A stretch of 64,000 nt of DNA from Ignisphaera sp. (GTDB lineage: Archaea > Thermoproteota > Thermoprotei_A > Sulfolobales > Ignisphaeraceae), in NCBI GenBank assembly GCA_038821645.1, contig JAWBDT010000005.1, positions 1 through 64,000 on the forward strand. Direction: 5' to 3'. The notes under the pieces are model-generated. The model was not told the DNA's origin. It made no database searches and saw only the letters and a list, made by a program, of their open reading frames with translations. The stretch's first letter is position 1; every line of letters starts with the position of its first letter. A program made the position numbers and the translations under genes. This document shows, piece after piece, positions 11,873 to 63,411 of this stretch.

Positions 11873-11969
11873 AGCCGGGTCGTCTAGCGGCCAAGGATGC
11901 GGGGCTCTGGAGTCTACAACTAGGTGGAGTGCCCCCGTGACCGGGGTTCGAATCCCCGCCCGGCTACCA
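11873..11969 (+). tRNA. tRNA-Gln(CUG) with a 21-nt intron at 37/38 (11911-11931) and encoded CCA
   Basis: Acceptor AGCCGGG/CCCGGCT, anticodon stem CGGGG/CCCCG, CTG at 11907-11909, GTTCGAATC T-loop; bulge-helix-bulge with CTCT/GGAG central helix. Confidence 0.96.
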
Positions 11970-11984
11970 TATAATGTTTATGGT

Positions 11985-12036
11985 TATGATGAACAGAGGG
12001 TCTTTTGATTGGTGAAGAAAGCCGGAAATGCTGAAT
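11985..12036 (+). ncRNA. C/D-box sRNA candidate
   Basis: C ATGATGA (11986), 12-nt guide, D' TTGA, C' GTGAAGA, 12-nt guide, D CTGA (12031-12034). Confidence 0.75.
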
Positions 12037-17012: not shown

Positions 17013-17206
17013 AAATATCACCTCTTGTAGCAAATTTCTAATAACAAGAACGATTTATAAGCTCTAGACATTTTATAATTCAACTCTCAAATTAACTCAT
17101 GGGAATCAGAGTATCAAAGCCACCATTTTAGACTGTGTCTTCTGTAAAAGTTTTTAAGCTGTTTTAGCTACTATAGATACTTGGAATTAAGAGAGGTACT
17201 TGGGCA

Positions 17207-17860
17207 GTGTCCGAGAAGCTCTATAGAACTAGTGAGGTTGCTGAGCTACTGAACATTAGTGTTTCTACTGTTAAAAAGTGGATAAAGCATGGTAGACTAC
17301 ATGCTCTCAGAGTCGGGAAGCTGTGGATGATCCCTGAGAGCGAAGTCAGGAGGATTCTGAGTGGTGTTGAGAGAAAAGAGATTAGAGCCGCTATATACGC
17401 TAGAGTTTCATCACGTAAGCAGAAAACAGATGGTAACTTAGAGCGGCAGATTGAAAGACTAAGAAACTACTGTTCTGCTAGAGGATACAAGGTTGTTGAT
17501 GTGGTAACAGATGTTGCTAGTGGTTTGAATGAGAAGCGTAATGGTCTACAGAAACTCCTCGATATGGCGGTTAAACACGAGATAGATGTTGTAGTTGTAG
17601 AGTTCCGTGATAGATTGACCAGGTTCGGTTTCGAGTACCTTGCTCGGTTCTTCGAGTCGCATGGTGTTAGAGTAGAGGTTGTAGAGGAGAGTGAGAAGGG
17701 TTACATGGATGAACTTGTGGAGGACTTCGTAGCGATAGTAACATCCTTCGCCGCCAGAATATACGGTAAGCGATCCCAGAAGTTCAGGAAGATAAAAAAC
17801 ACCATAGAAGAGGTGGTTGGGAACGGTTACCAAGACAGTTCAGAAGACTTTGAAGATTAA
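17207..17860 (+). CDS. tnpA: IS607 transposase (HTH + serine recombinase)
   Basis: N-terminal excisionase/MerR-like HTH; 'AAIYARVSS'; 'DVASGLN'; 'DRLTRFGFEYL'; 'ELVEDF..I..SFAARIYG'. Confidence 0.95.
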   Translation: MSEKLYRTSEVAELLNISVSTVKKWIKHGRLHALRVGKLWMIPESEVRRILSGVERKEIRAAIYARVSSRKQKTDGNLERQIERLRNYCSARGYKVVDVVTDVASGLNEKRNGLQKLLDMAVKHEIDVVVVEFRDRLTRFGFEYLARFFESHGVRVEVVEESEKGYMDELVEDFVAIVTSFAARIYGKRSQKFRKIKNTIEEVVGNGYQDSSEDFED

Positions 17861-19127
17861 GCTTTTACCAGTCTCCAGGAGAGATAAGGTTCTCGTACAT
17901 AGCTTGCTAAGCGATTACACAAACATTCTCAGGGATGCTTTGAACATAGTTGTTAAAAACGATGTGAAGAGCAAGAAGAGAGCTCACGAGCTCTGCTACA
18001 GGTACCTCAGAGAGAGGTATCCGCATCTTCACAACAAGTACGTTGAGGAAGCCTACAAGAGGGCACTCTTAGTATACAGGAGCTACAGGAAGCTTCTAGG
18101 AAAGTGGATGAAGCATAAACAAGGAAACCCGCCTTCACCACCAAGCGTTGATGCAAACAGAGTGGTTGATCTACACATTGATACTTTCAGAATCGAGGAA
18201 GAAAACAGCTTCAAGATCCTCAGGCTATCTATTGGTAGCGGTGAGTACGCTAGGTTTATCATGCTGGTTTACGACCATGTGTTGAGAGAGCTCAATAACG
18301 CTAAGGTCTCTAACTCGAAGATCATCGTAGATAGAGATGCCCTATACCTTCTCTTAACCATCAGAAGGAATGTTGAAGTGTTTGAGCATAGGAACAAGCT
18401 GGTGATCGACATAAACGAGGACAACGTAGCATGCCTTCTTGTAGATTATGAGAGAGGTAGAGCTGTATTCTTCACGATAAGCTACGACGTAAGCAGGCTA
18501 CGGGAGAACTACAGGAGGATTCGGAGATCTATTCAGAGGAAGGTGGAGAACATCTACGAGAGGAACAGGTTGCTGGAGAAGTACGGTGCTAGAGAGAGGA
18601 ACAGAGTTGAGGACAGAGTGAAGAAGGTTACAACCGTTATAGCTGAAATCGCTAAAACATACAATACAGACATTGTTAGAGAGAACCTGAGAGACATGAA
18701 GATAAACGGTAGGAAAGGTAGCAAGAAGCTGAACTACAGGCTTCAGACACTTCCATACAGAAAGATAATATTCAACCTAGAGTACAAAGCGTACGAGAGA
18801 GGCTTGAACGTTGTGGAGGTTGATGCCAGGAGAACCTCTATAACATGCCCATCCTGCGGGTACGTGGGTAAGGAGAACAGAAGCGGCGACAGATTCAAGT
18901 GCAAGAAATGCAGATTCGAGTTTAACTCGCACTACGTAGCCTGCCTAAACCTATTCTCCCGCCTCAATGACGGTGCGGTAGCCATCAGAGGCGGGAGGAT
19001 ACATATATACCTCGAGGCGGGCCTAGTGGTGCCCGCCGATGTGGCTCCCGATGACTCTGTGAACAATGAGCAGGTGCTGAGGGAGAAGCCCGTGTCGGTA
19101 ATACCCAAGATAATCAAAAACACCTAA
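17817..19127 (+). CDS. tnpB: TnpB (RNA-guided RuvC family) with atypical RuvC-III (His instead of Asp)
   Basis: RuvC-I 'VIDIN', RuvC-II 'VRENL', zinc finger CPSC/CKKC, RuvC-III 'NSHYVACLNL'. Confidence 0.9.
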   Translation: MGTVTKTVQKTLKIKLLPVSRRDKVLVHSLLSDYTNILRDALNIVVKNDVKSKKRAHELCYRYLRERYPHLHNKYVEEAYKRALLVYRSYRKLLGKWMKHKQGNPPSPPSVDANRVVDLHIDTFRIEEENSFKILRLSIGSGEYARFIMLVYDHVLRELNNAKVSNSKIIVDRDALYLLLTIRRNVEVFEHRNKLVIDINEDNVACLLVDYERGRAVFFTISYDVSRLRENYRRIRRSIQRKVENIYERNRLLEKYGARERNRVEDRVKKVTTVIAEIAKTYNTDIVRENLRDMKINGRKGSKKLNYRLQTLPYRKIIFNLEYKAYERGLNVVEVDARRTSITCPSCGYVGKENRSGDRFKCKKCRFEFNSHYVACLNLFSRLNDGAVAIRGGRIHIYLEAGLVVPADVAPDDSVNNEQVLREKPVSVIPKIIKNT

Positions 19128-19345
19128 ACAAACTCAAAGAAATAACACAGGCAACCACCTCACTACTATATATGTGTCCTGTTCTATACAGATATCGTAA
19201 CATATGTTTAAGAGATCTTTTAAGACCTTGAGCCAACACTATATAGCTAAGTTGTTCGTTAACAATGTTTATAAACTCTTACTATGTCTAGACAACAATC
19301 ATAAACAAAGACAAAGCACTCTACAGATTTGTTAGGTGATAGCTA

Positions 19346-22642: not shown

Positions 22643-22800
22643 CACTGTGCTTAATCTACTGACCTCCTCCCAGTCCTAAAGGACGAGGATTCTGGGAAGG
22701 CTTGAAGCTACATTCCCGTTCTCGGGGTTCAGCTCCGCGCCTGGTCTCAGGCGCATTACCCCCTACCCCACACATAGCAGGGCTCAGGGATATGGTTTCT
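22643..22800 (-). ncRNA. Stand-alone omegaRNA/reRNA-like transcript of the miniature element (bounds approximate)
   Basis: Internal TATA TTTATAA (22829-22823), then GC-rich hairpins (GCGCCTG-AGAC-CAGGCGC; right-end palindrome) running to the TCAG end and the flanking putative guide. Confidence 0.5.
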
Positions 22801-22842
22801 TGATACCTAAAGAATACAGAGCTTATAAACATTACCACATTA

Positions 22843-22990
22843 TCCCCGCCCTAAAGGGGGTTCAGCTCTGATGTAGGTTTATATCGGTTGATGTCATTGC
22901 TTCATCTCTTTGTTCCCCTGCATTGGTCTTGGGTTTGCATCACCCTTAGGGGCGTTCAGGGGCACCCCTAGACCCCACATCTTGAGTACC
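22843..22990 (-). ncRNA. Predicted omegaRNA of the nested tnpB (overlaps the tnpB 3' end and runs to the right end plus guide)
   Basis: GC-rich structured segment GGGGTCTAGGGGTGCCCCTGAACGCCCCTAAGGG...GCAGGGGAAC directly 3' of tnpB, where TnpB omegaRNAs are encoded. Confidence 0.55.
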
Positions 22991-24086
22991 TTAGAAATAA
23001 GTTTATGCATGCGATTACATCTCTATCTCCTATGAATCCACATCTAGTGCATCGCATTACTCTATTACCGTTGCTCTCGAGTTTGTTTCCACATCTTGGA
23101 CAAGTTGATGATGTCTTTACTGGGTTGACGTATCTAACTGCTAGTCCTCTCTCTAATGCTTCATATACTATGGTGAACTGCATCTTTCTGTAGAACCACA
23201 GGGATAGCTTCTTGTTGAAATTGCTACCTCTATTCACGTTACTCCTGAGATTGCTTAGGTTTTCAAGAACTATGATTGAGCTGTGTTCATTAGCTATCTT
23301 CGCTACTCTATCACCCAGCTTGTGTGCATAGTCCCAAGCAATACTCCTTATTCTTTCTCCATGTCTTTTAATCGCTCTTCTAACTCTTCTGATGAATCTC
23401 CATGACTTTGAGTACTTTCTCTGAATCTTCTCGATCCATATCCTGTGCGTCAGTATCTTTCTGAGTAGTGTCTTGAATCGCTTCAGCTTCAACAACTCTC
23501 CACTAGGTGTAAACACAGCTAGCGTAATATTGTCGAAGTTCATGTCAACAGTCATAACAGTTCTAGTTTCTCTTGGTTCAACTGTTTTCCTGAAGTATAC
23601 TGCTACATAGACCTTGTCTCCAACTACCTTCACAGCTATTTCGTAGTTGCTCCAAGCTCTGAACTTCTCTATCCTGTCAATAGATGTTAGTAGTCTTAGT
23701 TTAACCTCTCTACCGCTATGTATCTTTAGAACAAGCATTCTGTTCTCTAGGTCTAGCTTGTAGTCGTATTTATCTATTCTAGCTGATAGTCTTCTTAGAA
23801 CCGGTTTCTTCCCACCGTTCTGCTTACTGGCTCTAGCAATTGCTTTAGCGTAGACGTAGATCTGCTTCACGTGGTGTGCTCTGAAACCGTGCTTCCTGAG
23901 CTCATTGTAGAACATTCTGTGCAGAGTTTTAATTGAAGGCACTTTGTTTAAACTCCACAGCTTGTTGATAACGAATTGAGTTGCATCACGGTACAACCTC
24001 AGGAACTCAAGTAGAGTAAGATAGTCATCGCTACCCTTGGGGAGAGCTCTCATCTTAAGTGTTTCAACAAGCTCTCCCTCCCTCAT
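22968..24086 (-). CDS. tnpB: TnpB RNA-guided endonuclease with an intact D-E-D triad
   Basis: RuvC-I 'TVDMN', RuvC-II 'VLENL', zinc finger CPRC/CTRC, RuvC-III 'DRDVIACINL'. Confidence 0.93.
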   Translation of the reverse strand: MREGELVETLKMRALPKGSDDYLTLLEFLRLYRDATQFVINKLWSLNKVPSIKTLHRMFYNELRKHGFRAHHVKQIYVYAKAIARASKQNGGKKPVLRRLSARIDKYDYKLDLENRMLVLKIHSGREVKLRLLTSIDRIEKFRAWSNYEIAVKVVGDKVYVAVYFRKTVEPRETRTVMTVDMNFDNITLAVFTPSGELLKLKRFKTLLRKILTHRIWIEKIQRKYSKSWRFIRRVRRAIKRHGERIRSIAWDYAHKLGDRVAKIANEHSSIIVLENLSNLRSNVNRGSNFNKKLSLWFYRKMQFTIVYEALERGLAVRYVNPVKTSSTCPRCGNKLESNGNRVMRCTRCGFIGDRDVIACINLFLRYSRCGV

Positions 24087-24123
24087 CGAGAAGCTCCACC
24101 ACTACTCAGCATAGACATAAGTG

Positions 24124-24130
24124 TTTATAA
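24124..24130. promoter_or_regulatory. Probable bidirectional TATA box for tnpB and the divergent small ORF
   Basis: TTTATAA reads as a TATA box on both strands; 22 nt before ATG 24152 (+, leaderless) and 38 nt before the tnpB ATG (-). Confidence 0.55.
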
Positions 24131-24151
24131 GGCTTTCTATCAGTTTTACTT

Positions 24152-24310
24152 ATGGGTGATAGATTAGCTGACAAGTTCTACTTCGTTAAGTGCAGTGTTA
24201 TAAGGTACAGATACGGTGCACCAGTACTCTACCCACTGGGGAAAGACAAAGAAAAGATCAAGCACCTCCACGGAAAAGAAGTATATGTGCTAATCATAGC
24301 AGAAGAATAA
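24152..24310 (+). CDS. 52-aa transposon-associated small protein (DUF2080/AbrB-like)
   Basis: MGDRLADKFYFVKCSVIRYRYGAPVLYPLGKDKEKIKHLHGKEVYVLIIAEE; C-terminal 'GKEVYVLII' resembles DUF2080; lies inside the nested element; absent from the ORF track. Confidence 0.65.
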   Translation: MGDRLADKFYFVKCSVIRYRYGAPVLYPLGKDKEKIKHLHGKEVYVLIIAEE

Positions 24311-24612
24311 AATCACCCAATACAAACCTATAAGAAACCCGAAACAGTTGCGCGAGGCTTTCGGGATTGTAAAGCTTATGATTTTGTGTATAGATATGTA
24401 TACCAATGATCATGAATTAGAATGTTTCTTAATAGCCATAGAATGTATTATGACAGGAGGTATATCTGAAGTGTTTATATTTACAGATAATGCTAGAGTA
24501 CTATTTAAGTATTACTCTACAAATTGAGTTTCACGATAGGATGTATCTATATTAATATATATATTATAGGGATATGTATGAAGTGAATAGTAATGTGTAG
24601 GTATCAATAGTT

Positions 24613-63030: not shown

Positions 63031-63411
63031 CGTAATGCAACTGTTTCAGGGTTCATAATGATTTATAAGGGTTGATATATGTTGCTTTATCGTGAATTGA
63101 ACCTATTCCCAAGGCAAATGGGCAACAAAAATTCAAGTAGATGGGTATCCAATATCAGGATGTGATATTTCCCTACAACTATGAATTCAATGGAGATGTG
63201 GTGTAGATTTAAGGTTGCTCCAAATGAGTGGAGATCAACGACATAGACTTCAATGAAACACGCTCGAAGCTCATGAAAACAAGGATCAATATTAGATTAC
63301 ATCAACTACATGAAATCTAAACCTCTATTAGTTAATAACTGAAACAGTTATTAGTTTTAGTATACGATAACGCTATCTTGATGATCATTATGTAACAAGG
63401 GTGTATTATCT

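Follow-up and report, generated by a model that had tools for sequence, protein, structure and literature searches.

What guide does a TnpB protein acquire when its element lands in the end of another mobile element, and is that guide aimed at anything beyond the insertion site? The question is raised by a locus in a 64,000-nucleotide (nt) stretch of chromosomal DNA from the Thermoproteota archaeon Ignisphaera sp. (contig JAWBDT010000005.1), hereafter the window. At this locus, a tnpB element without a transposase (the insert) splits the left-end palindrome of a short, omegaRNA-like element that has no protein gene (the host). We favor, with a probability of about 0.65, a chance nested insertion at a site resembling a transposon-associated motif (TAM) in the left-end palindrome of an element of the HgcC/sotRNA/PATE kind. 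These data are consistent with an ordinary nested insertion and do not prove an attack on the other element.

The insert interrupts an end palindrome of the host

A first-pass annotation of the window had proposed that removal of the insert rejoins a left-end palindrome. The rejoined flanks fold as a GC hairpin of 7-8 bp (−15.1 or −17.6 kcal/mol as RNA) and match the hairpin region at 22659-22696 in an alignment scoring 10, a value that 0 of 2000 shuffles attained (maximum 7). Because the rejoined halves both fold and align to this second palindrome (H2), the split palindrome (H1) is confirmed. The annotation was also right about the TTAC beside the palindrome, which is present on the minus strand (Table 1), and about the insert itself: tnpB is intact, with all 372 amino acids (aa) and its catalytic residues in place, tnpA is absent, and no target duplication surrounds the insertion. 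The hairpin half at 24352..24368 had been said to supply a TAM-like flank, and its last 7 nt, GCCTCGC, fit the left-flank motif of the tnpB family described below. A tRNA or tmRNA was considered as the split structure, and none was found at the locus.

Family comparison defines the ends of the insert

One scan of a genome-contig collection yielded 16 related loci (given here as L numbers), whose TnpB proteins are 38-86% identical to that of the insert, the nearest relatives coming from Ignisphaera, Desulfurococcaceae, and Sulfolobales assemblies. The right end is present in 14 of the 16; the contigs of L012 and L016 stop before it. Each of the 14 retains similarity up to ...CTGAACCCC (...AACCCT in L013) and loses it there, which fixes the last base of the insert at 22857 (...GAACCCC). 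The first-pass annotation had ended the insert at 22858 with an ambiguity of 1 nt; the observed end lies 1 nt away, within that ambiguity. Beyond this point, the 14 flanks resemble neither one another nor the window, a pattern that independent insertions with flank-derived guides would produce.

At the left end, the conserved block starts with GCAACTG (24351), and the 7 nt outside it in the window are GCCTCGC. The tetranucleotide GCCT occupies positions −7 to −4 in 10 of the 11 aligned left ends, or 10 of 12 when L005 is counted; GCC lies one base further out in L006 and two bases further out in L005, which also deviates. A C is found at −1 in 7 of 11. The two ends of the insert are imperfect inverted repeats of 38 nt with 71% complementarity. 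A TTTAC located 17 nt upstream of the left end in the window and in L009 was rejected as the true TAM, since it is missing at that distance in L002, L003, L004, L012, and L016. Likewise, a 4-nt repeat at both junctions of L011, and partly of L002, is not general across the family.

The predicted guide is the 3′ arm of the split palindrome

The last ~135 nt of the insert form a conserved structured RNA, overlapping tnpB at its 3′ end and extending as far as the right end. Its consensus fold, derived from 14 sequences, contains 18 pairs, three of them with compensatory changes, and a closing helix in which GGGGU pairs with the terminal ACCCC; covariance model R1 scores 145 bits at this RNA. The omegaRNA is predicted to continue past the right end into the guide. 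ISDra2 TnpB is reported to take a guide of ~16 nt from flanking DNA (PMC8612924). With the right end fixed at 22857, the predicted guide starts CTTTAGGGCGGGGA, the sequence beyond the right end beginning CTTTAGGGCGGGGATAAT. Guide positions 1-13 are the loop and 3′ arm of H1, in line with the first-pass proposal that the guide is the 3′ arm of the host palindrome, and positions 1-14 reproduce the Rfam HgcC consensus across the loop, the 3′ arm, and the next base.

These features suggest how the locus could have arisen. A non-autonomous tnpB element, without a transposase, would have landed in a short, omegaRNA-like element that lacks a protein gene, and specifically in its left-end palindrome, because the 5′ arm of this palindrome happens to carry the family flank motif (GCCT at −7 to −4, C at −1). 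The guide would follow the usual TnpB rule and consist of whatever lies past the right end, in this case the palindrome's loop and 3′ arm. The vacated donor joint would be the only certain target, and TnpB would cut that joint, restoring the element after excision; both the TAM and the nuclease activity are putative here. The insertion splits the left palindrome of the host and so probably immobilizes it.

The host resembles HgcC RNAs, sotRNAs, and PATEs

Two similar palindromes in direct orientation bracket a unit of ~200 nt without a protein gene; a 60-aa open reading frame (ORF) within it (22656..22838) has no Pfam match. In a permissive Rfam search, HgcC (RF00062) aligned end to end with 22646-22756 at 30.1 bits against a gathering threshold of 50 (E-value 1.4e-4 in a 1.9-kb search and 0.0047 over the whole window), and sot0042 (RF02656) aligned over its full length with 22668-22795 at 22.1 bits against a gathering threshold of 88 (E 0.0037). 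At gathering thresholds, Rfam gave no match over the window. Both models close with an 8-bp stem and a UUYA loop, followed in HgcC by AGGAGGUCAG, and the window has both features: the terminal hairpin and AGGAGGUCAG are aligned with high posterior probability, with one non-canonical pair and UUUA as the host loop.

The sotRNAs, which accompany the 3′ end of tnpB genes of the IS1341 type, are omegaRNAs. An 8-bp hairpin with a UUCA or UUUA loop was named the “RE-like tetraloop” in sotRNAs of IS1341-type tnpB and was noted as well in HgcC RNAs and in PATEs whose left and right ends are fused (PMC4615843). Some PATEs are reported to encode omegaRNAs used by TnpB in trans (PMC10055086), and HgcC RNAs are annotated as RNA genes whose function is still called unresolved (PMC5732400). 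Given the model alignments and the matching tetraloop and tail, the host is best described as an HgcC/sotRNA-like, PATE-like omegaRNA element that scores below the Rfam threshold, which bars formal membership, and that is known from one copy. The Rfam alignments and the paired palindromes thus agree with the proposal of a nested insertion into the palindromic end of an IS200/IS605-related, omegaRNA-like host. The HgcC-like RNA has no other copy in the window, and neither a host copy nor an HgcC or sot match was found in the 12 of 16 related loci that were scanned (64,521 bases). A plasmid collection compared with the host unit gave just two 39-nt chance matches, to Klebsiella plasmids.

We also considered whether the host could be a close relative of the insert's own omegaRNA. 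Covariance model R1 misses the host at default filters and scores only 8.4 bits with the filters off, against 145 bits at the insert. The two RNAs share just a frame, UGUGGGGU ... GAGCTGAACCCC. The 12-mer GAGCTGAACCCC has two exact copies in the window (0.07 expected), at 22724-22735 and 22857-22868, 133 nt apart. In the host it is the 5′ strand of a nested stem, and the HgcC consensus has a similar motif at that place. The common 12-mer suggests a distant common ancestry of the two scaffolds. The 16 nt that follow the internal GAACCCC of the host were tried as a fixed guide and have no second match in the window at ≤3 mismatches; because this stretch forms the nested stem with the motif, it reads as structure and not as a guide.

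Targets of the guide and alternative explanations

The first-pass annotation assigned the insertion a role, in that TnpB would be armed against the end hairpins of the host family and would either cut their copies, as a conflict between transposons, or home into them as multicopy safe sites. Our data do not support such a role, which we regard as rather improbable. In its favor, the guide agrees with the HgcC consensus over its first 14 positions, 3 of 9 elements give hints of a hairpin preference, and, if the TAM were GCC beside a CC crossover, the canonical 5′ arm would have its terminal GCC correctly positioned. For plasmids, TnpB has also been discussed as a drive on multicopy targets (bioRxiv 2025.02.20.638934). 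However, 0 of the 14 other right ends have a hairpin arm as their flank, the 16-nt guide has no further match at ≤3 mismatches in the 64-kb window, and no second target was found in 85 kb of related loci. Similarly, no intact GC-rich hairpin with a TTYA tetraloop was detected in 149,158 bases (the window plus the 16 loci), in a search where H2 itself fell below the script's threshold.

H2 is the sole other family hairpin at hand. It matches the guide at 15 of 20 positions, with mismatches at 8, 10, 15, 16, and 18, so that only the first 7 positions are contiguous; the first-pass annotation had counted a match to the first 8 guide nucleotides. TnpB generally needs about 12 contiguous TAM-proximal matches. 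Moreover, the 5′ flank of H2 is CCTCGTC, compared with GCCTCGC at the insert, and lacks the family flank motif. Recombinational homing into other copies would also be poor, because the split site lies ~17 nt from the left terminus of the host, where templated repair would find next to no shared sequence.

Several observations nevertheless weigh against a chance nested insertion with no wider target. Canonical copies of the HgcC hairpin, if present in the genome, would match the guide, since its first 14 nt are the HgcC consensus, and the search for other copies covered the window and the related loci, not the source genome beyond the window. The rejoined flanks pair strongly across the junction in two of nine two-ended elements, those of the window (z −2.1) and L011 (z −2.8), and in L009 a perfect 6-bp hairpin with a UUCA loop (2715-2738) ends 1 nt before the left end; the tnpB family may prefer to land in or next to hairpins. 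If the family did prefer exposed hairpins, a guide that equals the HgcC/PATE consensus hairpin could cut every canonical copy, in an RNA-guided conflict of two transposon lineages, a prospect to which we give only a slim chance.

The position of the left boundary, uncertain by 3-5 nt, belongs to the same set of objections. A boundary directly before GCAACTG, the one used in the first-pass annotation, is somewhat favored. It restores the pairing of the arm with GGGCGGGG and keeps the L009 hairpin wholly within flanking DNA; the candidate TAM would then be GCCTNNC, with an unusual gap of 3 nt separating the flank motif and the junction. A crossover at a CC dinucleotide, as in IS607 elements (bioRxiv 2023.11.20.567912), is an uncertain alternative. 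All 12 of 12 elements have GCC where the left junction lies, at three offsets (10 at −7), and the right end is CCCC in 14 of 15, with T as the next base in 9 of 14. Such a crossover would shift 3-4 nt (TCGC) into the element and alter the TAM. The rejoined site would fold in this case too, and the guide is identical under both boundaries. As a separate observation, the rejoined flanks of L011 (around 812 and 2277) form a palindrome of 13 pairs across the junction.

Two further explanations dispense with a mobile host or with the nested insertion. The “host” could be a fixed HgcC-like noncoding RNA gene with its own promoter, the palindrome an upstream structural or regulatory hairpin, and the tnpB element an arrival upstream of that gene. 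This would suit the TATA-like box between the split palindrome and the RNA, a candidate promoter of the HgcC-like RNA, as well as the single copy in the window, the lack of an upstream hairpin in the Rfam HgcC model, and the annotation of HgcC RNAs as RNA genes of unknown function (PMC5732400). We consider it unlikely, because a ~200-nt unit flanked by two similar direct palindromes is how IS200/IS605 ends and PATEs are organized (PMC4615843), and the RNA aligns over its full length with the tnpB-associated sotRNA model.

Less likely still is that no pre-existing palindrome was entered, the left half belonging to the tnpB element and the resemblance to a split hairpin being partly coincidence or the product of recombination between elements. 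The family junction GCCTCAC does resemble a hairpin arm; it occurs in L009, the nearest relative here (small ORF 96% identical), and differs from GCCTCGC of the window at a single base. In addition, the variable three bases recur among relatives, CAC three times and ATC twice. Against this, the likeness to H2 reaches 10 nt further out (AATCCCGAAA versus CCCAGAAT), past the family-conserved sequence, the perfect 3′ arm GGGCGGGG needs a partner, and the rejoined site folds even with a shifted boundary.

TnpB and a conserved small ORF

TnpB of the insert matches Pfam PF07282 (Cas12f1-like_TNB) at 61.6 bits (cut-off 26.3, E 8e-17). Its RuvC residues D181, E275, and D356 align with the catalytic positions of the solved TnpB/Cas12f chains 8j3r/8hr5, and all four cysteines of the zinc ribbon (CxxC...CxxC, residues 329-349) are in place. 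The protein is full length in comparison with four relatives (residues 1-372) and is 74-80% identical to those of L001-L004 and L009. Unlike the window copy, two related genes are broken: the match in L009 (3001-4118) is divided in two, the reading frame changing near residue 137, and that in L015 (3001-3881) falls into three pieces plus a masked run of N. The insert carries no tnpA, and no Y1 transposase was found among 57 ORFs scanned in the window (9 at E ≤ 0.01 and 48 at E ≤ 1e-8), a set from which ORFs of <110 aa outside the locus were left out.

The first-pass annotation missed a conserved 52-aa ORF inside the insert. tblastn detected it in 12 related loci at 43-96% identity, and the small ORF, of 47-52 aa, lies between the left end and tnpB, being upstream of tnpB in L002-L006, L008-L012, and L016. 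An alignment of 12 sequences has 12 invariant columns. A profile search retrieved 213 database proteins at E ≤ 0.001, from thermophilic archaea; all named proteins among them are “hypothetical,” and none has a Pfam domain. The 52-aa ORF has no Pfam match at E ≤ 1 and no fold match in the PDB at E ≤ 0.001 (best E 0.96). In an AlphaFold model (pLDDT 79), the protein has one short helix and two strands.

Layout of the locus

Read along the minus strand, the locus consists of TTAC, a GC-rich half-palindrome, the insert, the other half-palindrome, an AT-rich stretch, a GC-rich RNA-like segment, the second palindrome, and the tail. The insert comprises a left end, the small ORF, tnpB, the omegaRNA, and a right end. 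Coordinates are collected in Table 1. Elsewhere, the window carries genes for ribosomal proteins, SecY, thermosome, PCNA, and primase.

Table 1. Coordinates of the nested elements and their parts in the window
Feature	Position	Strand	Basis or remark
TTAC, proposed host target motif	24369-24372	-	directly 5′ of the host palindrome; read from the sequence
5′ half of split end palindrome H1 (17 nt, GC-rich)	24352..24368	-	aligns to 5′ half of hairpin region 22682-22696
Inserted non-autonomous tnpB element (1,495 bp)	22857..24351	-	boundaries from 14 right and 11 left ends of relatives
Conserved 52-aa ORF in insert	24152..24310	+	opposite strand to tnpB
tnpB (372 aa)	22968..24086	-	Pfam domain, catalytic residue alignment
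omegaRNA scaffold (~135 nt), terminal GAGCTGAACCCC	22857..22992	-	14-sequence alignment, covariance model R1
Predicted guide, first 20 nt beyond right end	22837..22856	-	family conservation ends at 22857
Other half of split palindrome H1	22838-22856	-	rejoined-flank alignment
TATA-like box TTTATAA	22823..22829	-	~25 nt upstream of HgcC-like RNA; read from the sequence
HgcC/sot0042-like host RNA (~150 nt), omegaRNA-like, without protein gene	22646..22795	-	Rfam model alignments
Internal GAGCTGAACCCC in host RNA	22724..22735	-	same 12-mer closes the insert at its right end
Host right-end palindrome H2	22669-22696	-	aligns to terminal hairpin of HgcC model
Conserved tail GGAGGTCAG after H2	22659-22667	-	aligns to AGGAGGUCAG tail of HgcC model

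Comparison with known systems

The insert resembles the IS1341-type, tnpB-only elements of IS200/IS605 (ISDra2, ISGst), as described in PMC8612924 and PMC10055086, in its TnpB with a RuvC triad and zinc ribbon, in a ~135-nt structured RNA that overlaps the 3′ end of tnpB and reaches the right end, and in a predicted guide derived from the flank. It shares with them the lack of a target duplication, a conserved motif by the left end, and its non-autonomous nature. It differs in that its ends are imperfect 38-nt inverted repeats instead of similar same-strand hairpins, its flank motif lies 3 nt from the left-end block, and it carries an opposite-strand 52-aa ORF.

The host is comparable to HgcC (RF00062), to the haloarchaeal sotRNAs (RF02656), and to PATEs as described in PMC4615843, in that it aligns end to end with both models, has the 8-bp stem, UUUA loop, and AGGAGGUCAG tail, and forms a short protein-less unit between two palindromes. 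In contrast, its scores are below gathering (30.1 versus 50 and 22.1 versus 88), and it comes as one copy in an Ignisphaera-like member of the Thermoproteota.

A third comparison is with IS607 elements, which encode a serine TnpA together with TnpB and are described in bioRxiv 2023.11.20.567912 as having neither inverted repeats nor palindromic ends. The present family has CC at both junctions, which would suit the identical core dinucleotide expected of IS607, and its relative L013 has an upstream ORF with a helix-turn-helix (HTH); unlike IS607, the family has inverted-repeat-like ends and the insert has no serine recombinase. A serine TnpA is found elsewhere in the window (17207..17860, Resolvase + HTH_17), where it overlaps a second TnpB gene (17817..19127) in an IS607-type element at ~17150-19170. 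The second TnpB is 28% identical to that of the insert. The left end of this element carries CTGTTTTAG, like the left ends of the insert's tnpB family, and the element is a possible mobilizer in trans of that family.

Nested insertions, flank-derived guides, PATEs, and the tetraloop are already known. A non-exhaustive literature search found no published example in which the end hairpin of one element serves as the TnpB guide of another. If matching copies of the hairpin exist, the locus would provide a natural guide RNA aimed at the repeat of another mobile element, and the known role of TnpB, protection of the donor site of its element, would come to include conflict with other elements. For now, the value of the locus is more modest: it offers a clean nested insertion that fixes the right end and predicted guide of an uncharacterized TnpB family of the Thermoproteota, it connects HgcC of Rfam, of unknown function, with omegaRNA/PATE elements in a crenarchaeal-type genome, and it exposes a conserved, unnamed protein of 47-52 aa that travels with this TnpB family.

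Other observations in the window

A unit of ~310 bp at ~63033-63345 resembles a miniature inverted-repeat transposable element, with a left end GCAACTGTTTCAGG and a right-end-like sequence ...AAATCTAAACCTC. The omegaRNA model of the tnpB family gives weak matches to it on both strands (E 0.087 and 0.39), and its left flank is without GCCT. Finally, a sequence resembling a C/D-box small RNA lies at 11982-12036 on the plus strand, just downstream of tRNA-Pro (11873-11969); it matches several archaeal sR families below threshold, the best being sR20 at 32.1 bits against 44.

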